A stretch of 64,000 nucleotides of DNA from an uncultured Chloroflexia bacterium (lineage in GTDB: Bacteria > Chloroflexota > Limnocylindria > QHBO01), in contig CAWHEV010000009.1 in the NCBI GenBank assembly GCA_963828485.1, forward strand, positions 775,318-839,317, in the 5' to 3' direction. Every line of letters starts with the position of its first letter. The stretch's first letter is position 1. Under the pieces are notes generated by a model. That model ran no database searches. It saw only the letters and a list, made by a program, of their open reading frames with translations, and was not told where the DNA came from. The translations under genes were made by a program, and so were the position numbers. Shown here piece after piece: positions 116 through 39,682 of the stretch.

Positions 116-682
116 GTGACGTACATGAGCTCCGAGTCGCCATTCCGCCCGGTGCGCGTGGAGGTCACAACCTCGAGCTTCCGCGTGCGTGGCACGGTGC
201 GAACCCGGTTCGACCGCGTCGCATCGGTGCTCAACAACCTCGACCTCTCCCACCTGACCGTGGAGCTCGCGACGATCAGCGAGCTGTACGACCCCGAGCG
301 GGGCAGGCGGGCGGAGTCCGTGATGATCTCGCTCGACGAGATCCTGTTCATGGTGGCCGACATGCCCGAGGAGCGGACGACCGACGCCATCATCGTGCCC
401 AAGCACCCCATCGGCGCGCTGCTCGGCATCCCGCCCTTCGAGCTCGAGGGCACGATCTTCGTCCCCGAGTCGGTCGACTCGGCCGCCACGGCGATGACGA
501 TGACGCCCGACATCTTCGTGCCGATGGTCGACGTCGAAGTGTCCTGCTGGATCCGCACCGAGCTCAACGCCGTCTACCCGGTGCTGGCCTTCCACCGGCG
601 GCTGGTGCACGTGATGTCGTTCTCGGAGGACGCCCGCCCGGATCCCCTCGCCGGGGTACGACCGCCAACCGAGACGGGATGA
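116..682 (+). CDS. hypothetical protein
   Basis: 188-aa ORF with protein-like composition and no recognisable motif. Confidence 0.35.
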   Translation: MTYMSSESPFRPVRVEVTTSSFRVRGTVRTRFDRVASVLNNLDLSHLTVELATISELYDPERGRRAESVMISLDEILFMVADMPEERTTDAIIVPKHPIGALLGIPPFELEGTIFVPESVDSAATAMTMTPDIFVPMVDVEVSCWIRTELNAVYPVLAFHRRLVHVMSFSEDARPDPLAGVRPPTETG

Positions 683-694
683 CGCCGACGCGGC

Positions 695-1450
695 CTACGG
701 GCCGCGGTCGACAATGGGCTTGAAGCCCACCTCTTCACCAGGCTCGGCAGCGTCGAGGATCGCCTCCACCACGCGTGCGGCGGCTGCCTGGTTCAGGCGC
801 AGCACGCGGCCGTAGGCGTTGGCCCACCACGGCGCGTTGTCGGTCGTCACGACCTCCTCGGACGGCTCCTCGAGCACGACCCGCGAATGCGGATGCGGGA
901 ACACGATGGCCGCGCGCAGGTGGATCTCCGGCAGGGCCATGTCCTCGACCCAGCGCTGGATGCCGAATGTGAGGGCCGTGGCGTCGGTGCTCGGATTGGT
1001 GCGGCAGCGGATCCAGCCATGACGGCTGTGCGTGTCGTACTCCCAGGTCTTGCCGCGGATCCGGTATCGGCCGTGCCACTCCCGGACGGTGATGACCCGC
1101 GTGCCGCCCGGGCCAACGAGCATTCCATCCAGGCGCGCAACGTCGCGAACGGGAAGGCGCGGCTGGACGATCAGGGTGTAGTCGTCGCCGAAGATCGGCG
1201 ACAGCAGTGCGATGAGCGCATCGGCGCGCCGGCGGGCGTGGTCCGGCCGCATGACCCGCAGGAGCCACGCCGTGCCGACACCGATCCCGATCGCGGCCGT
1301 GCAGGCCAGCAGGCCGACGCGTACGGGCGACGCGGGGCCGATGAAGGCGAGGAGGATTGACACGGCGCCGACGCCGATCATCGCCAGGGCCACCATGCGA
1401 GGCCGTCGACGCGGATCGTGGTGGAGTGCCTCGGGCCGGATCACGTGCAT
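695..1450 (-). CDS. membrane-anchored hypothetical protein, possibly NERD-like
   Basis: N-terminal TM helices. Central stretch DVARLDGMLVGPGGTRVITVREWHG resembles the NERD core (EIDhlvv..G.fviEvK.w.G) with the E/K positions substituted. Confidence 0.3.
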   Translation of the reverse strand: MHVIRPEALHHDPRRRPRMVALAMIGVGAVSILLAFIGPASPVRVGLLACTAAIGIGVGTAWLLRVMRPDHARRRADALIALLSPIFGDDYTLIVQPRLPVRDVARLDGMLVGPGGTRVITVREWHGRYRIRGKTWEYDTHSRHGWIRCRTNPSTDATALTFGIQRWVEDMALPEIHLRAAIVFPHPHSRVVLEEPSEEVVTTDNAPWWANAYGRVLRLNQAAAARVVEAILDAAEPGEEVGFKPIVDRGP

Positions 1451-1974: not shown

Positions 1975-2364
1975 TCACGACGCGCTGCGCAGCTCCTCGT
2001 TACCGCCGATCGCCTGCTCGACGGCGTCCCGGAACGTGTCGAGGTCGAAGGGCTTGGGGACGACGGGACCGAGCGGTTCGAGCTCCGACAGGCGCTCGCG
2101 GCTGGCTGCCGAGACGAAGATGGCCGGGATGCCCGGCCACGCCGAGCGCAGGAGCTCGGTGATGTCCCCACCATCGCCATCGGGCAGCATCACGTCGATG
2201 ACCATCAGGTGCGGCAGGGCCACCTCCATCAGGTCGCCGAGCTCGACGATCCGGGTGCAGGTGACGACGGTGAAGCCCATCTCTCGCAGGAGATCGGCTT
2301 CCAGGGCGGCGATATCCGGGTCGTCCTCGAGGACGTAGGCGCGGGGAGCTTCGGACATGATCAT
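1975..2364 (-). CDS. stand-alone response regulator receiver domain (CheY-like)
   Basis: Single REC domain with acceptor Asp context VIDVMLPDGDG and a KPF motif. Divergent from ku. Confidence 0.75.
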   Translation of the reverse strand: MIMSEAPRAYVLEDDPDIAALEADLLREMGFTVVTCTRIVELGDLMEVALPHLMVIDVMLPDGDGGDITELLRSAWPGIPAIFVSAASRERLSELEPLGPVVPKPFDLDTFRDAVEQAIGGNEELRSAS

Positions 2365-4153: not shown

Positions 4154-4804
4154 TCAGCGAGCCAGGAGCTCCTGGGCGTGCTCGAGCTTGGTCCGCGGAT
4201 CGGCGACCAGGCCCGGCCAATCTGCCAGGGCGGCGGCCAACCGATCGAGCTGACCGCGAGCCGCGGGGTCGTCGGCCGAGGAGAGCATCAGCTCGAGCTC
4301 GACAACGTCAAGCACGCCGAGCGGCTCGCCACCGCTTCCGATGACCGTCACCACATCGAGGCTCAGCGTCCCGAGCCGCTCGGCGCCGAGGTGCACGCCG
4401 CGCTCGGTTCGCAGCTGCCGGAGACGGAACTGCTCGCCCAGGGTCTCCCCATGGCTCAGCCGCGCGAGCATCTCGCGAGCCTCGCTCGCCGGCCAGTCGA
4501 CCGGCCGCATGGAAGAACTTGCGGGCCCCTCGATCTCGGGACGGCTGTGCAGCCAGGCATCGGCTCCCCCGGCCGCAGGCGCCGGGCCCTTGAGCGAGAC
4601 GATGAAGCCACTCCCGCGATCCCGCAGGCGGCACGCCCAGCCCGCCGAGCGGAGGCGGCCGTCCGCGGTGTCGAGGTAGATGTCGATCTCGTCGACGGTC
4701 GCCGCCGGGCCGAGCCGAGCGTCCGAGAGCGTCGACGCCGTCGCCAGCCCTGCGAGCACGGTCGCGTCAGCGGCGAGGAACTTTGCCTCGACCTCAGTCG
4801 CCAT
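4154..4804 (-). CDS. CYTH-domain protein (triphosphate tunnel metalloenzyme family)
   Basis: MATEVEAKFL start (ExExK motif) and beta-barrel CYTH-like periodicity. Overlaps the upstream WYL gene by 11 nt. Confidence 0.7.
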   Translation of the reverse strand: MATEVEAKFLAADATVLAGLATASTLSDARLGPAATVDEIDIYLDTADGRLRSAGWACRLRDRGSGFIVSLKGPAPAAGGADAWLHSRPEIEGPASSSMRPVDWPASEAREMLARLSHGETLGEQFRLRQLRTERGVHLGAERLGTLSLDVVTVIGSGGEPLGVLDVVELELMLSSADDPAARGQLDRLAAALADWPGLVADPRTKLEHAQELLAR

Positions 4805-5825
4805 AGCGCGCCGCAGCGGTGCGTGCCGACTCGGCGATCGCCTCGCGCAGCTCGGACGGCTCGATGACCTCGACCGCGCCACCCCACGAGAGCACCCACG
4901 ACTGGATCTCGACGATCCCGGCCACCGTGACCGCGAGCTCGAGCCCGCCGTCCGGGAGCTCGGTGATCACCTGCGACCGATGCCAGACGGCCTCGCGCAC
5001 CCGGTGCGCGACGGATGCGTCGAAGCGCAGGCGGATCCTGACCGCCGGCGTGCCCTCGGACGACCAGATGCCCCACGAGTTGGCCAGCCAGGCGTCCGGA
5101 TCGAAGTCGTCGGGGATCTCGTAACGGTCCGTGGTCAGCGTCGCGCTGCGGATGCGCTCGACCTTGTAGGTGCGCATGGCGCCAGCCGGCTCGTCGTGGC
5201 CGATGAGGTAGACGCTGCGGAGCGCCGCGTCCGGCTCGAGGAAGTAGGGCCGGACGCGGGTCCTCTTCGGTGCGGCCGTCCCGGGGTCGTAGTCGATCTC
5301 GACCACGCGTCCCTCCGCCCAGCCGCGCGCCACGGCCGAGAAGGAGCGGGTGAACGGCTCGTCCGGGTCGTGGGCCCCGATGGCGAGCACCGTGGCCGTC
5401 ACGTGGCGCGCGATCGGCTGCGGAACCGCATCGGCGAGCTTGGTGAAGGCGCTGACGACGGCGGCGTCGTACTGGTCGGACCACCGCGCGATGAGGCGCG
5501 AGGCGAGGAAGAGGACGATCGCCTCCGGGACCGACAGGTGCAGCGGAGGAAGGAAGAACTTGCGATCGATGCCGTAGCGGCCGCGACCGGCCTGGAAGAC
5601 CGGCACGTCGAGCTCCTCCTCGAGTGCCCGGATGTCGCGATACACGGTGCGCGTCGTCATCCCGGTCAACCGGGCGATCTCGGCGACCGGTACCCCGGCC
5701 TCGCCGCTGCCCTTCGTGTAGAGGATCGACGCGACGTTCAGGAGCCGTGCCAGTCGGTCCCGTTTCCGGCCGGCGCGGTCCTCCGCGGCACCCCAGCCGG
5801 ACCACTCGTCGTCGATCTCGGTCAC
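4794..5825 (-). CDS. HTH-WYL-WCX transcriptional regulator (PafBC-like)
   Basis: N-terminal HTH (GMTTRTVYRDIRALEE), central WYL-type domain (RPYFLEPD...VYLIG) and C-terminal WCX-like region. GTG start at 5823-5825. Confidence 0.75.
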   Translation of the reverse strand: MTEIDDEWSGWGAAEDRAGRKRDRLARLLNVASILYTKGSGEAGVPVAEIARLTGMTTRTVYRDIRALEEELDVPVFQAGRGRYGIDRKFFLPPLHLSVPEAIVLFLASRLIARWSDQYDAAVVSAFTKLADAVPQPIARHVTATVLAIGAHDPDEPFTRSFSAVARGWAEGRVVEIDYDPGTAAPKRTRVRPYFLEPDAALRSVYLIGHDEPAGAMRTYKVERIRSATLTTDRYEIPDDFDPDAWLANSWGIWSSEGTPAVRIRLRFDASVAHRVREAVWHRSQVITELPDGGLELAVTVAGIVEIQSWVLSWGGAVEVIEPSELREAIAESARTAAARYGD

Positions 5826-35392: not shown

Positions 35393-36898
35393 GTGGTGGC
35401 GACCATCATTCCGCGCTGGGAGTGGCGCGCCTTCGGCACCGCATTCGGTCCATCGGAGGACGCGTTTGCCTCGTTGACGCCGACGGGTGTCCAGGAGAGC
35501 GACGAGCTGTACCTGCTGCCGGCGCCCGGCGCCCGAATCGGCGACAACGTCAAGGTCCGGGACGACCTGATGGACATCAAGGTCCTCCGCGAGGTCAATG
35601 CCGACGGCCTCGAGCAGTGGACGCCGGTCATGAAGGCCAGCTTCCCGCTCCCCGCCGCGGGGGTCCGCGCGGTGTTCGAGGCGCTGCGCCTCGAGACGCC
35701 GCCCCTCGTACGCGACTCGTACACGCTTGACCAGTTCACGTCGGACCTCGCCACGACGAGCGGGCTCCGTGCCGTGAACGTCCACAAGCGGCGCGTGCGC
35801 TACTCGGTCGGCGGCTGCACCTCGGAGGTCTCCGATGTCGTCGCCGACGGAAGGCCCATCCGAACCGTGGCCATCGAGTCCGAGGACGCCGCGGCCGTCA
35901 TCGCCGCCGTCCGCTCCGTCGGCCTTGGCGACTATGTCAACACCAGCTATCCGCGAGGAGTCGCCGATCTCATCGATGGGGTGCCGCAGCGCTATGCCGT
36001 GATCGACGTCGGCACGAACTCGATCAAGTTCCACATCGGTGAGCGCCTGGTCGATGGCAGCTGGCGCCGAGTCGTCGATCGCGCCGAGGTGACGCGGCTC
36101 GGCGAGGGTCTGGCGGAAACGGGCGACATCGCGCCCGCGGCCGTCGGACGCGCGGTTGCCGCGATCGCAGCCATGGTCAACGAGGCCCGCGAGCACGACG
36201 TCCGAGCGATCGCCGCGGTCGCCACCGCTGGCATGCGGCAGGCGCGCAACAGCGAAGAGGTCGTGGCGGCGATTCGCGCTGGGGCGGGAGTGAACGTGAC
36301 CGTCATTCCGGGTGAGGAAGAGAGCCGCCTTGCCTACGTGGCTGTCGCGTTCAGTCTCGGCCTTGGCGACGGACCCGTCGTCGTCTTCGACACCGGCGGC
36401 GGCAGCACCCAGTTCACCCTCGGCCACGGAAGCGAGGTTGAGGAGCAGTTCAGCGTCGACGTCGGTGCCGTGCGGTACACGGAGCGGTTCGGGCTCGGCG
36501 GCGCGGTCTCTCCGGAGGTGCTGCGCCAGGTGCGCGATGCGATCTCCGCGGATCTGGCCTCGATCGATGGCCGCGCGAGGCCGGACGCGCTGGTCGGCAT
36601 GGGCGGAGCGCTCACGAACATCACCGCGGTGAGTCACGGCCTGGCCACGTACGACCCCGACGTCGTCCATGGGACCGTCATCGAGCGCGCGGAGATCGAG
36701 CGGCAGATCGAGCTCTACCGATCGCGAGATTCGGATGCCAGGCGCGAGGTCGTCGGTCTCCAACCGAAGCGCGCCGACGTCATCCTGGCAGGAGCGTGCA
36801 TCGTGATGACGGTCATGGACAAGCTCGGCCAGGACACGCTGACAGTCTGCGATCGAGGCCTGCGCCACGGGCTGCTGATGGAGCGCTTCGGCGCCTGA
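35393..36898 (+). CDS. Ppx/GppA-family phosphatase with about 190-aa N-terminal extra domain
   Basis: C-terminal two thirds match Ppx/GppA (VIDVGTNSIKFHIGE, FDTGGGSTQF, ASH-fold). The N-terminal domain (IPRWEWRAFG...) is unassigned and may be CYTH-like. Confidence 0.7.
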   Translation: MVATIIPRWEWRAFGTAFGPSEDAFASLTPTGVQESDELYLLPAPGARIGDNVKVRDDLMDIKVLREVNADGLEQWTPVMKASFPLPAAGVRAVFEALRLETPPLVRDSYTLDQFTSDLATTSGLRAVNVHKRRVRYSVGGCTSEVSDVVADGRPIRTVAIESEDAAAVIAAVRSVGLGDYVNTSYPRGVADLIDGVPQRYAVIDVGTNSIKFHIGERLVDGSWRRVVDRAEVTRLGEGLAETGDIAPAAVGRAVAAIAAMVNEAREHDVRAIAAVATAGMRQARNSEEVVAAIRAGAGVNVTVIPGEEESRLAYVAVAFSLGLGDGPVVVFDTGGGSTQFTLGHGSEVEEQFSVDVGAVRYTERFGLGGAVSPEVLRQVRDAISADLASIDGRARPDALVGMGGALTNITAVSHGLATYDPDVVHGTVIERAEIERQIELYRSRDSDARREVVGLQPKRADVILAGACIVMTVMDKLGQDTLTVCDRGLRHGLLMERFGA

Positions 36899-36928: not shown

Positions 36929-37732
36929 TCAGGCCTGTGCGGTCCAGACCAGGATGGAGTCGCCCTCGACCTTGATGCCGGGCTTGACCAGGTCGGGCAG
37001 GTCGAGCGGATAGGCCTCCGCGTCACCGCGGTACGCGCCCTCGGCCCGCCACGCGCGGCGGCCGTTCGCCAGCCGACCACTCAGGTCGAACGACGCGCCG
37101 TGGCAGGGACAGCGCAGATCCTGCCAATCGGGCCGGTAGGCCAGCGTGCAGGCCATGTGCGTGCAGACCGATGAGAGCGCGCGGATCGTGCCGGCGTCGT
37201 TGACCACGAAGCCGTCGAACGCGGGCGTGGTGAACCGCAGCGCCGTGCCCTCGGGCACCTCGTCCACGCGCGCGACCTCGGTCCAGAAGCCTTCACCGCC
37301 GACGAGCTGCTCGTCCTCCCAGTCGTCGCCGGACCGCTCGGTGCCGGAGCGCAGCGCGACGCCGATGACGCCGGCCGCCATGCCGGCCGCGGCCCCCAGT
37401 CCGGCCTGGAGGACCTGGCGTCGCGAGAGGCGCCACGTGCTCGAGCCGGCCGGGCCGGGCTGCTCGCGGACGGGAGGCGGCTCGGTGACCGACGCGATGC
37501 CCGCATCGGCCTCGCGCATCCGGAGCCGGAGCTGCTCCACGAATGCCGGGTCGGGCTCAGCGATGTCGGGGGGCTGGGCCCCGGCGGCGAGCTCGGCCGC
37601 GGTGCGGGCCATCTCCGCCTCGTCGCGATCCTCGACCGCATCCGGCGAGGGCCGGCCGTCGCCGAGCAGCGCCTCGAGGTACCCGTCGAAGCGCTCGGCG
37701 GCGTCGTTCAGGCGGCGGTCGTCATCAGCCAT
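36929..37732 (-). CDS. anti-sigma-factor-like membrane protein with extracytoplasmic Rieske [2Fe-2S] domain
   Basis: Overlaps the upstream ECF sigma gene by 8 nt. Cytoplasmic N-terminus, internal twin-Arg/TM segment (SRRQVLQAGLGAAAGMAAGVIGVAL), then Rieske boxes CTHMAC and CPCHGASF. Confidence 0.6.
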   Translation of the reverse strand: MADDDRRLNDAAERFDGYLEALLGDGRPSPDAVEDRDEAEMARTAAELAAGAQPPDIAEPDPAFVEQLRLRMREADAGIASVTEPPPVREQPGPAGSSTWRLSRRQVLQAGLGAAAGMAAGVIGVALRSGTERSGDDWEDEQLVGGEGFWTEVARVDEVPEGTALRFTTPAFDGFVVNDAGTIRALSSVCTHMACTLAYRPDWQDLRCPCHGASFDLSGRLANGRRAWRAEGAYRGDAEAYPLDLPDLVKPGIKVEGDSILVWTAQA

Positions 37733-38240
37733 CGTTCGGCTCTCCGATCAGCGCCGCGCGACGCAGGGCGCGGTACTGGAGCACGCGGGCATTGCCGTTG
37801 CTGATCCCCAGGGCGACCGCGGTCTCGGCCACGGTCTTGCGCTCGAGGAAGCGGAGCTCGAGGACGCGTCGGTAGTGGTCGGGAAGGCGTCTCAGAAGCG
37901 CCTGGACGCGCACGCGAGCCGTATCGTCCGGCTCCGGCTGTGGCTTGCCGGACTCGTCGGCCGGCTCCCAGCCGGGAGCGACGTGATCGGCCCCGACGAC
38001 CGGCAGCCGGTAGAACGCGCGCCAGTAGTCGGCCGTCGCGTTGTGCGCCACCCGGTACAGCCACGCGGCGACCTGCCGCGGATCGCGCGACGTGTCGAGC
38101 TGCTCGACGGCGCGCACGAAGACCTGGGCGGTCAGGTCCTCGGCATCGGGGTGGTTTCCCACCCGCGCGTAGATGAACCGATAGATGCCGACGACGTGAT
38201 CGTCGTAGACCTGCTCGAAGGGTCCCGAACCGGTGGCCAT
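37725..38240 (-). CDS. ECF (sigma-70 family group IV) RNA polymerase sigma factor
   Basis: Region 2 (YRFIYARVGNHPDAEDLTAQVFVRA) and region 4 HTH (KTVAETAVALGISNGNARVLQYRALRR). Confidence 0.8.
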   Translation of the reverse strand: MATGSGPFEQVYDDHVVGIYRFIYARVGNHPDAEDLTAQVFVRAVEQLDTSRDPRQVAAWLYRVAHNATADYWRAFYRLPVVGADHVAPGWEPADESGKPQPEPDDTARVRVQALLRRLPDHYRRVLELRFLERKTVAETAVALGISNGNARVLQYRALRRAALIGEPNDG

Positions 38241-38264
38241 CTCACCGATGCGGTACGACCGCGG

Positions 38265-38768
38265 TTACGCTCGGGGCCGCAGCGGAGCGACGAGGGCGGC
38301 GACTTCCTCGAGGAATCGCGCGTCGGTCTCGTCGAAGGCATCGAGGTCCGAGCCGTCGACGTCGATCTCGCCGATGACCTTGCCGCCATCGAAGATCGGC
38401 ACGACGATCTCGCTTCGCGTGCTCGCGAAGCAGGCCAGGTAGCGGGGATCGGCGTTCACATCGGGCACGATCTCGGTCCTGCCCGAGGCCGCTGCCGCCC
38501 CGCACACCCCGGTGCCGATCGGGATCCTGGTGTGCTCGGTGGCCTCCGGCCCGCTCCATGGCCCGAGCACGAGGTCGGTTCCATCGACCCAGTAGATGCC
38601 GACCCAGTCGTAGTGGGCGAAGCGGGAGCGCAGCTGCTCGACGACGCGCTGCGCCGCGGTCTCGGGATGCGGCGCATCGGCGATCGCTGCTCGCAGGCCA
38701 TTGAGCGCGTCGCCGTGGGCCGCCGGGCGCTCCTCCGCGACCGGGTGGCTCACTGGCGCGCTGCCCAT
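38265..38768 (-). CDS. GAF domain protein (free Met-sulfoxide reductase / YebR-like)
   Basis: YDWVGIYWV...GVCG...IVVPI pattern typical of single-domain GAF proteins. Confidence 0.65.
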   Translation of the reverse strand: MGSAPVSHPVAEERPAAHGDALNGLRAAIADAPHPETAAQRVVEQLRSRFAHYDWVGIYWVDGTDLVLGPWSGPEATEHTRIPIGTGVCGAAAASGRTEIVPDVNADPRYLACFASTRSEIVVPIFDGGKVIGEIDVDGSDLDAFDETDARFLEEVAALVAPLRPRA

Positions 38769-39127
38769 CGCTCCGCCCACAGGTCGATGGCGACGATTGC
38801 CCCTCGCAGCTCGTCGCCCTTGGCCGTGAGCGAGTACTCGACCCACGGCGGCATGGCGCTGATCTCGCGCCGCTCGACGAGGTTCTCGTCCTCGAGCAGC
38901 TTGAGCCGCTGCGACAGCGTGGCGGAGTTGGCTCCGCCGAGGGCGTCCTGGAGCTCGCAGAAGCGCTGCGTCCGCTCACCGAGGGCGCGAATGATGCGAA
39001 GGACCCACTTCTGGCCCAGCACGTTGAGAGCCGTGGTCGCGGCGCATTCGGCGCGCTGGGCGGCCTCGCGCCTCGCGGCTCTCGAGCGAACGGACGTCTG
39101 GGGGGTGGGCACTTGGGCTGCGTCCAT
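38750..39127 (-). CDS. HxlR-family transcriptional regulator
   Basis: LGQKWVLRIIRAL...RFCELQ winged-helix signature of HxlR/YtcD regulators. Confidence 0.7.
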   Translation of the reverse strand: MDAAQVPTPQTSVRSRAARREAAQRAECAATTALNVLGQKWVLRIIRALGERTQRFCELQDALGGANSATLSQRLKLLEDENLVERREISAMPPWVEYSLTAKGDELRGAIVAIDLWAERWAARQ

Positions 39128-39184
39128 CAGGACGCGAACCCTAGCACCGCACCGCCCCGCCCTCAACCGGTGCCCGGCGCGGGG

Positions 39185-39532
39185 TCAGCCCTCGACGGTG
39201 ATCGTCATGTTCATGGACGAGTGGACCGTGCAGGTGATGTTGTAGGTGCCCGGCTCGTCGAACGTCACGTCGATGTCGGATCCGCCCTGCTCGTCGACGA
39301 TCGGATCGTCGTCGGCGACGCCATCGGAGCCCTCGGTGACGGTGTGGCCGGAGGTGTCGGTGAAGGTCACTGTCGTGCCGGCCTGGATCGTCAGCGACGA
39401 CGGAGAGAACTGGGATCCGGAGAGCGAGACCGTCTCGCCGCCATTCTCATCGGGCGCCGATGAAGCCTCGCCTCCGCCGCCGCAGGCGGCCAGGGTCAGC
39501 ACGATCGTGAGCAGGATTCCGGCGAACGCCAT
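39185..39532 (-). CDS. cupredoxin (type 1 blue copper) lipoprotein
   Basis: Lipobox LTLAACGGG; copper ligand pattern GHTVT...CTVHSSM (His, Cys, His, Met). Confidence 0.6.
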   Translation of the reverse strand: MAFAGILLTIVLTLAACGGGGEASSAPDENGGETVSLSGSQFSPSSLTIQAGTTVTFTDTSGHTVTEGSDGVADDDPIVDEQGGSDIDVTFDEPGTYNITCTVHSSMNMTITVEG

Positions 39533-39682
39533 CGGTCGTGATCGGTGCACAGGTGTCTCTCCCGTTGATCGAGGATGCTGGGCTCGGGTCTCAGCGGGTG
39601 TACGCCGAACGTTACCGCCCGCAGAGGTATTTGACGCCCCCCGGCAGGGCACGCATAGTGCGGTGGCCCACCTTCAGCCCCG

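Follow-up and report, generated by a model that had tools for sequence, protein, structure and literature searches.

Does a membrane protein with a Rieske [2Fe-2S] domain act as the anti-sigma factor of the sigma factor encoded just ahead of it? The question is posed by two overlapping genes on a contig from an uncultured Chloroflexia bacterium (CAWHEV010000009.1, positions 775,318 to 839,317 of the forward strand). This 64-kb stretch, with a G+C content of about 70%, is called the window here; coordinates given without a locus number refer to it. The upstream gene encodes a sigma factor of the extracytoplasmic function (ECF) type, and the downstream gene a protein of 267 amino acids (aa) that ends in the Rieske domain. 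Our answer, held with slightly more confidence than doubt, is that the two belong to an autoregulated ECF module, whose anti-sigma factor has a three-helix cytoplasmic head and an extracytoplasmic Rieske sensor. The pair and its parts are laid out as follows.

37725..38240, minus strand: ECF (group 4) sigma factor, 171 aa (Pfam, NCBIfam and PDB matches)
36929..37732, minus strand: candidate anti-sigma factor, 267 aa, consisting of an N-terminal domain (N-domain), a Pro-rich linker (residues 84-99), a twin-arginine/transmembrane (TM) segment, a spacer and a Rieske domain
37484..37732, minus strand: predicted cytoplasmic N-domain, residues 1-83 (family alignment, AlphaFold2, codon-position bias)
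37349..37435, minus strand: twin-arginine motif W-R-L-S-R-R-Q-V-L and Gly/Ala-rich hydrophobic segment, residues 100-128
36932..37297, minus strand: predicted extracytoplasmic bc-type Rieske [2Fe-2S] domain, residues 146-267 (Pfam, PDB, AlphaFold2, Foldseek)
37148..37165, minus strand: Rieske box I, C190-T-H192-M-A-C195, with ligands C190 and H192 and disulfide Cys195 (read from the sequence)
37100..37111, minus strand: Rieske box II, C208-P-C210-H211, with ligands C208 and H211 and disulfide Cys210 (read from the sequence)

An initial annotation of this DNA had described the two open reading frames (ORFs), which lie on the minus strand, and proved correct in every detail, including the 8 nt (37725..37732) by which the sigma gene runs into the beginning of the Rieske gene. 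It had also proposed that the pair is co-transcribed, which is supported, and had called for a survey of genomes for ECF-Rieske pairs. Among the close relatives of the window, termed clade 1 (L001-L019), the 8-nt overlap is kept in 16/16 loci in which both start codons could be placed; we read it as a probable sign of translational coupling, and this arrangement supports both the co-transcription and the coupling of the two genes. The genome scan placed the sigma gene immediately 5' of the Rieske gene in 20/20 related loci. Clade 1 retains the entire block cupredoxin - HxlR - GAF - sigma - Rieske, while the pair alone is retained in L020, a lower-G+C Chloroflexia genome whose Rieske and sigma proteins are respectively 29% and 42% identical to those of the window. 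A metagenome scan seeded with the L020 protein supplied the clade 2 sample, i.e. 24 more full-length relatives (32-54% identical to L020), with Rieske proteins 29-32% identical to that of the window; here the sigma gene lies directly 5' of the Rieske gene in 23 of the 24 loci. The remaining clade-2 neighbours vary by locus (kinase, glycosidase, response-regulator receiver, YtkA-like protein, cupredoxin), which leaves the Rieske protein as the sole constant partner of the sigma factor. No other candidate anti-sigma gene was found conserved beside the sigma gene in the loci examined. The pairing of sigma and Rieske genes greatly exceeds what chance would give.

Metagenome-assembled genomes labelled Candidatus Limnocylindria and 'uncultured Chloroflexia' are the source of the named relatives of the Rieske protein, and the module is abundant in soil metagenomes, with 875 matches among the scored candidates; most of those among the matches listed have about 70% identity or more. 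All examples so far are from Chloroflexota or from unassigned soil metagenome contigs. Some clade-2 copies are damaged, possibly as pseudogenes or through assembly errors: in L047 and L048 the ORF ends after 148 aa, and in L049 (2501..3351) the Rieske boxes lie in another frame and box II reads RPCH. Weaker metagenome matches (L050-L061) were rejected as family members; they lack the N-domain, match only at the Rieske boxes, and are FAD-oxidoreductase-Rieske fusions or short Rieske proteins.

The sigma ORF matches Pfam Sigma70_r2 (E 1e-11, 44.8 bits, cut-off 24) and Sigma70_r4_2 (E 8e-11, 41.8 bits, cut-off 25.7), and scores 68.7 bits against TIGR02937, the ECF superfamily model of NCBIfam (cut-off 42.9). 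With sigma-2 and sigma-4 regions only, and with these family models above their cut-offs, it is an ECF (group 4) sigma factor. Its top NCBIfam model is TIGR02952, the BldN family, at 97.7 bits, which is under the cut-off of 206.45, and its closest solved relative is BldN of Streptomyces venezuelae (PDB 6dxo_A, E 4.6e-19). BldN is a member of group ECF121 and carries an N-terminal pro-sequence that is removed by proteolysis (PMC7826278). The window sigma factor differs in scoring below the BldN-family cut-off and in starting only 7 residues ahead of region 2.1, with no pro-sequence of the BldN type; it is a minimal ECF sigma factor without a regulatory extension.

The partner protein has an intact cluster-binding site. 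Pfam Rieske matches residues 150-225 (E 5.7e-14, 52.2 bits, cut-off 20.3), and the CTHMAC and CPCHGASF motifs pointed out in the initial annotation are there, within a Rieske domain that has all ligand and disulfide cysteines; boxes I and II together provide the two Cys and two His ligands and the disulfide pair of the bc1/b6f type. The pattern CxHxxC-12-CxCH occurs in 34/37 family members, the three exceptions being truncated or frameshifted. AlphaFold2 (AF2) models the domain with a predicted local distance difference test (pLDDT) of 76-91, apart from a low-confidence 15-aa insertion (residues 225-240) in the Pro-loop region. In sequence, the best PDB matches are 8hn2_A (3e-10) and two small Rieske proteins, 9rk4 and 5cxm, and Foldseek pairs the model with 8hn2_A at TMt 0.72 and with PetC3 (5cxm_A) at TMt 0.80. 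By sequence and fold the closest relatives are Chlorobaculum 8hn2, Synechocystis PetC3 5cxm, Kuenenia 9rk4 (kuste4569) and the arsenite oxidase subunit AioB. The first three are small, membrane-anchored or soluble bc-type Rieske proteins from outside bc complexes, and they share with the window protein the compact fold of about 110-120 aa, the CxHxxC...CxCH boxes and the disulfide cysteines. They differ in that their solved chains have about 100-133 residues and that none is described as sigma-linked, and the insertion at residues 225-240 is an extra of the window protein. It does not have the marks of a bc1/b6f Rieske subunit, there being no cytochrome b gene in the flanks examined; the equivalog models stay far under their cut-offs (TIGR01416, 36.3 against 97.4; PetC, 33.6 against 250; actinobacterial QcrA, 31.9 against 275).

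Between the two domains, SRRQVL is followed by an 18-residue Gly/Ala-rich stretch, and residues 100-128 are predicted to form an uncleaved signal-anchor of the twin-arginine translocation (Tat) type, with the N-terminus inside and the C-terminus outside. Both signal profiles score below threshold (Pfam TAT_signal at residues 102-121, 17.8 bits, cut-off 22.7; TIGR01409, 8.4 bits, cut-off 16.7), and the position of the motif, about 100 aa from the N-terminus, is atypical for Tat substrates. A motif S/T-R-R-x-[LV]-[LI] is found 92-139 aa from the N-terminus in 36/37 members, including every intact one. Charge is +3 ahead of the hydrophobic segment and net negative behind it, and reading of the sequence revealed no AxA-type cleavage site behind the segment. 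A topology with the N-domain in and the Rieske domain out is the probable one because of this charge distribution and because of the disulfide Cys pair of the boxes, which fits an extracytoplasmic location. The anti-sigma-like layout claimed for the protein in the initial annotation stands as regards its single-pass architecture, with an N-domain of about 100 aa, an SRRxVL/hydrophobic segment and an outside domain; the N-domain itself matches no anti-sigma family.

The N-domain is a real, translated protein domain that purifying selection constrains to the same degree as the Rieske domain. Codon differences between orthologues number 452 at position 3 in the N-domain, versus 116 and 153 at positions 1 and 2, and the corresponding counts for the Rieske domain are 764 versus 304 and 268. 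The family alignment shows three conserved motifs, RFDxYLxxLLGxGRPSP, DEAEMARxAAEL and PDPAFVEQLRxRMR. AF2 predicts helices at residues 2-23, 36-51 and 62-83 that do not pack together (pLDDT 75; predicted TM-score, pTM, 0.30). The first 90 residues contain no Cys in 35/37 members (L033 and L034 have two), so the N-domain is not a zinc-binding anti-sigma (ZAS) domain; nor does it have the family match or the packed bundle seen in class I anti-sigma domains (RseA, RsiW, ChrR, RskA; ZAS included). The similarity to anti-sigma domains that had been anticipated for this region is not detectable by sequence, profile or Foldseek comparison. Pfam and NCBIfam gave no match at E up to 10; the PDB gave none with the single sequence, the clade-1 profile or the two-clade profile, and the RsdA family (PF16751; PDB 3vep) likewise none. 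The Foldseek search of the N-domain model against the PDB returned a single meaningless match (E 9.9) and speaks neither for nor against an anti-sigma fold, because the model has no fixed tertiary arrangement. An apparent F/Y swap between N-domain helix 1 and the 'QY' motif of the sigma factor was considered as co-variation and dropped, the Phe of 'ERF' being conserved in both clades.

A likeness of layout connects the protein with RsbN, the anti-sigma factor of BldN. RsbN is the founding example of the 'class III' domain: its cytoplasmic N-domain, about 91 aa long, is built of three helices with flexible links between them, and is followed by a single TM helix (residues 118-139) and a large outside domain; such domains have been reported only from Streptomyces and related actinomycetes (PMC6101532). 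The window protein shares with it the three helices, the Pro-containing flexible linkers, the cytoplasmic N-domain of about 90 aa and the one membrane segment at about residues 100-140, and has the class III layout as far as the modelled, unpacked helices and the predicted TM/Tat segment at residues 100-128 can tell. For comparison, RsbN was read from a Streptomyces locus (L023) across a frameshift, and full-length homologues were then taken from a family search. Between RsbN and the window N-domain, A..F...LE and DP.[VF]...[QL]R recur as colinear motifs, and the sigma-contacting residues of RsbN correspond to window residues as listed here.

RsbN contacts A11 / F14 / L18: window A12 / F15 / L19 (colinear)
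RsbN contacts L43 / L46 / L50: window M41 / T44 (Met in most orthologues) / L48
RsbN Pro-containing hinge: also present in the window protein
RsbN DPEVKVVQRAQL: window DPAFVEQLRLRM (contact motifs DPEV..QRAxL and DPAF..LRLRM)

On the other side of the interface, the BldN sigma-4 contacts F137, L138, Q161, Y162 and V165 align with F131, L132, Q155, Y156 and L159 of the window sigma factor, and the sigma-4 helix 'LQYRA' is common to both. If the sigma-Rieske pairing is functional, the N-domain would possibly extend the RsbN-type (class III) anti-sigma head beyond the actinomycetes. The two proteins differ elsewhere: the RsbN sequences that we read lack a twin-arginine motif, and the outside domain is Rieske in the window protein and Pfam DUF5667 in RsbN. 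The 2018 RsbN structure paper described the extracytoplasmic part as similar to no known protein; we find DUF5667 in it (L023 5877..7110; proteins P0183-P0302). Two further actinomycete loci were viewed. In Streptomyces microflavus (L021), a convergent acyltransferase-like gene begins 19 nt past bldN and no rsbN-like ORF lies between bldN and the acyltransferase gene (4634..5292), a possible artefact since the assembly has frameshifts; in Actinacidiphila (L022), the gene context is different.

The autoregulation in our reading rests on a 15-bp element, GTAAC-N6-CGTA, of which the window contains exactly 2 copies versus 0.01 expected.

38254..38268, minus strand: element copy 1, straddling the stop codon of the upstream gene and ending 13 nt ahead of the sigma ATG
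39601..39615, minus strand: element copy 2, in the non-coding stretch 5' of the cupredoxin gene

The element is strand-specific, with no copy on the opposite strand. Both copies are at the same places in the window and in 17/19 clade-1 relatives (L001-L016, L019), where the blocks are invariant and the spacer is free. Of the other two relatives, L018 has the element only ahead of the sigma gene, and in L017, a more distant member of the clade, the second copy (2070..2085) lies just 3' of the Rieske gene, not 5' of a cupredoxin gene. Clade 2 (L024-L049) has a related form, TGTAAC-N7-CGTA(G/A)TAAT, upstream of its sigma genes; it is found also 5' of the cupredoxin gene in L037 (motif 221..237, gene 347..793) and, in L033/L034, 5' of a receiver-domain gene on the strand of that gene (3448..3916 in L033). 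This distribution looks like the pattern of an autoregulated ECF regulon, and the element offers a handle for defining the regulon of the module. A BldN-type promoter, CGTAAC-N17-CGTTG, is present in the region upstream of rsbN in L023; the GTAAC block of the window element equals its -35 block, and the two halves of the element resemble the BldN-type -35 and -10. We rejected a canonical ECF promoter for the element, since neither half has a conserved block at a distance of 16-17 bp; GTAAC-N15-18-CGT, which has the canonical spacing, is matched once in the window versus 1.16 times expected, which is no enrichment. The element may act as an unusual promoter, as an operator made of direct repeats or at the RNA level.

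The divergent intergenic region has another conserved block, GCGTCAAAT, at about 39625..39640 (minus strand), 11-16 nt 5' of the GTAAC element, and the block holds the same position in L001, L003-L007 and L009-L016. On the other strand it reads ATTTGACGC, and it may be the -35 (TTGACG) of the ccmA promoter.

How would such a module work? Most likely, the sigma factor has its cognate anti-sigma factor in the membrane-anchored 267-aa protein and would be held by the three-helix N-domain on the cytoplasmic side. Through the Tat pathway, the twin-arginine signal-anchor would place the Rieske domain, already folded and loaded with its cluster, on the outer face of the membrane. If the exposed cluster were lost, oxidized or reduced, the sigma factor would be set free, probably because the anti-sigma factor unfolds and is proteolysed. 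Plausible triggers are oxidants, copper, a lack of iron and the respiratory chain's redox state. Exposed Fe-S clusters are vulnerable, and this vulnerability together with the content of the operon makes oxidants and copper attractive as candidate signals. The freed sigma factor would activate the operon cupredoxin - HxlR regulator - free methionine sulfoxide reductase - sigma - Rieske, and GTAAC-N6-CGTA, 5' of the cupredoxin and sigma genes, would be the point of control. The fully specified version of this scheme, with a Tat-exported Rieske sensor, a distant relative of the RsbN head, and a sigma factor acting via a 15-bp element whose blocks stand one turn closer than in described ECF promoters, is a doubtful though real possibility.

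Redox-sensing anti-sigma factors include RsrA, ChrR, RslA and RskA (zinc/thiol, class I) and RsmA of Streptomyces ([2Fe-2S]), and the candidate resembles them in that a redox-active centre in the anti-sigma factor would control the release of sigma. Their centre, however, is cytoplasmic and sits in the sigma-binding domain (ZAS HxxxCxxC) or in an HATPase-type anti-sigma factor, whereas the window protein has an N-domain without Cys and its cluster in a separate Rieske domain that is predicted to be exported. Another point of comparison is RsdA-SigD of Mycobacterium tuberculosis (PDB 3vep), in which sigma-4 is bound by the N-domain, short and helical, of a single-pass anti-sigma factor. The window sigma factor is weakly related to SigD region 4, but the N-domain of RsdA does not match that of the window (PF16751, 3vep) and its extracytoplasmic domain is a different one. 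In full-text literature searches, no paper came up that connects an anti-sigma factor with a Rieske domain, and the main text of the 2021 ECF reclassification mentions neither Rieske nor Chloroflexi. Provided that the N-domain binds the sigma factor, the locus would encode an ECF sigma factor and a single-pass anti-sigma factor with an unprecedented sensor domain and export route.

ECF sigma/anti-sigma pairs are a main route by which bacteria sense conditions outside the cytoplasm, and the signal is mostly unknown. Here the putative sensor is of a chemically known kind, a [2Fe-2S] centre of the high-potential type, whose redox and spectroscopic states can be measured. Should the pairing prove functional, electron paramagnetic resonance (EPR), redox titration and damage to the cluster by copper or peroxide would give direct access to how an ECF anti-sigma factor perceives its signal. 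In sigma/anti-sigma signalling, an Fe-S cluster would then for the first time be a sensor on the outer face of the membrane, and Tat export would for the first time be linked with anti-sigma biogenesis.

The genes sharing the operon with the pair are the following.

39185..39550, minus strand: cupredoxin (plastocyanin/azurin family) lipoprotein (Pfam Copper-bind, Cupredoxin_1); start GTG 39550 or ATG 39532
38750..39166, minus strand: HxlR-family winged-helix regulator (Pfam HxlR, 1e-22); start codon uncertain
38265..38768, minus strand: free methionine-(R)-sulfoxide reductase homologue (GAF fold); ORF extends to 38846

The cupredoxin gene, whose product has a lipobox that we read as LAAC, is probably the first gene of the operon. 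The HxlR-family regulator has HxlR, YodB, QsrR and YybR among its PDB relatives, and the end of its gene is overlapped by the reductase ORF. Divergent from the operon are ccmA, B, C, E and F. The redox-related neighbourhood noted in the initial annotation is borne out: the GAF, HxlR and cupredoxin genes are upstream on the strand of the pair, and the ccm genes are divergent. One correction concerns the 'GAF' gene, which is homologous to free methionine-(R)-sulfoxide reductase (3mmh_A, 'Methionine-R-sulfoxide reductase', E 4.6e-29; 3ksf, 1f5m and 1vhm also matched), and so probably encodes an oxidative-damage repair enzyme and not a signalling GAF domain. In clade 2 a gene for a YtkA-like protein overlaps the end of the Rieske gene (L035 3439..3870; L039 3313..3744). 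The theme of the neighbourhood is oxidant repair with copper or respiratory proteins of the cell envelope; the reductase homologue and the recurring cupredoxin and YtkA-like genes make a redox, oxidant or copper theme more specific, and the YodB/QsrR-like HxlR regulator fits an oxidant/copper theme as well. The redox or iron responsiveness proposed in the initial annotation is a candidate property of the module. The associations of cupredoxin, YtkA-like and receiver-domain genes in clade 2 also hint at a regulon. At its other end, where the Rieske gene is the last, the operon converges on a Ppx/GppA gene (35393..36898, plus strand; 501 aa), in which the N-terminal 220 residues have no Pfam match and the domain occupies residues 221-497 only.

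Several results weigh against a Rieske anti-sigma factor. Binding of the sigma factor is only a candidate role for the N-domain, which in Pfam, NCBIfam, PDB and Foldseek searches matched no anti-sigma family and no solved anti-sigma structure. A narrow N-domain profile searched against 1.84 billion representatives retrieved 32 proteins, all of the same family or its fragments, and among these 32 none was seen with the N-domain joined to another sensor domain. The resemblance to RsbN is also limited: hhalign against RsbN N-domains was colinear over 64 columns at P = 0.095, which is not significant. The observed score was reached by 3/200 column shuffles, and a reversed-sequence control scored higher (16.8 versus 14.0); HMMER yielded no cross-match between the window N-domain and the RsbN family. 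The element is problematic as the promoter of the sigma factor because its blocks are 6-7 bp apart, versus 16-17 bp in ECF promoters, i.e. about 10 bp (one helical turn) closer. One clade-2 contig (L044) has the Rieske gene but no sigma ORF within 1.1 kb upstream. Finally, conserved co-transcription would be equally expected if the Rieske protein were merely a target gene of the sigma factor. In a different account, the protein would be an electron carrier, exported by Tat and anchored in the membrane, that works for example with the cupredoxin or with a respiratory complex and is only co-transcribed with the sigma factor and controlled by it; the N-terminal 100 aa would serve something else, such as assembly, cytoplasmic docking or a Tat proofreading chaperone, and the sigma factor would be controlled by transcription alone or by an unlinked factor. 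The complete bc-type domain agrees with this, as do the closest relatives, which are electron-transfer proteins (Chlorobaculum Rieske, PetC3, AioB), the recurrence in both clades of a nearby cupredoxin, a typical electron-transfer partner, the adjoining ccm (cytochrome c maturation) genes and the dissimilarity of the N-domain to known anti-sigma domains. We nevertheless consider an electron carrier somewhat unlikely. The Rieske gene, which stands last in the operon, has no gene for cytochrome b or for any further complex subunit linked to it, and its only invariant neighbour in both clades is the sigma gene, usually in translational coupling. A minimal ECF sigma factor without a linked anti-sigma factor would be unusual, and we know of no Rieske electron carrier in which a twin-arginine motif is preceded by a conserved, helical cytoplasmic domain of 85 aa.

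The protein could also be an anti-sigma factor that monitors Fe-S supply or Tat export and not redox state, which we think improbable. Rieske proteins acquire their cluster while still in the cytoplasm and leave it in folded form through the Tat pathway. An apo-protein failing Tat proofreading would be degraded in the cytoplasm and free the sigma factor; in another version, a signal peptidase would cut the exported protein, and a site-2 protease would remove what is left of it, the N-domain with the TM segment. Such monitoring would suit the invariance of the twin-arginine motif in the family and a hydrophobic segment whose Gly/Ala richness is more like a Tat signal than a typical TM helix. 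The operon, however, has no iron-uptake or Fe-S assembly genes and its content suggests the handling of oxidants or copper, and the cleavage version meets with the lack of an AxA-type site past the hydrophobic segment. The observations made here do not separate such monitoring from the favoured reading. Very improbable, finally, is that sigma and Rieske genes are neighbours by a lineage-specific accident of gene order without functional coupling. The restriction of all examples to Chloroflexota or unassigned soil contigs would be expected of an accident, as would the contig without a sigma gene. Yet the pair persists at about 30% protein identity while every other neighbour changes, its overlapping stop and start codons are conserved, and the same cis-element accompanies it in both clades. 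The Rieske anti-sigma factor remains the reading that we favour.

Inspection of the N-domain profile matches gave two minor observations. Apparent domain fusions (P0140, P0149, P0121, P0128 and P0134) were rejected as such, these being frameshifted or chimeric gene calls. One chimeric call among the matches consists of a sigma fragment, garbage and a Rieske C-terminus.

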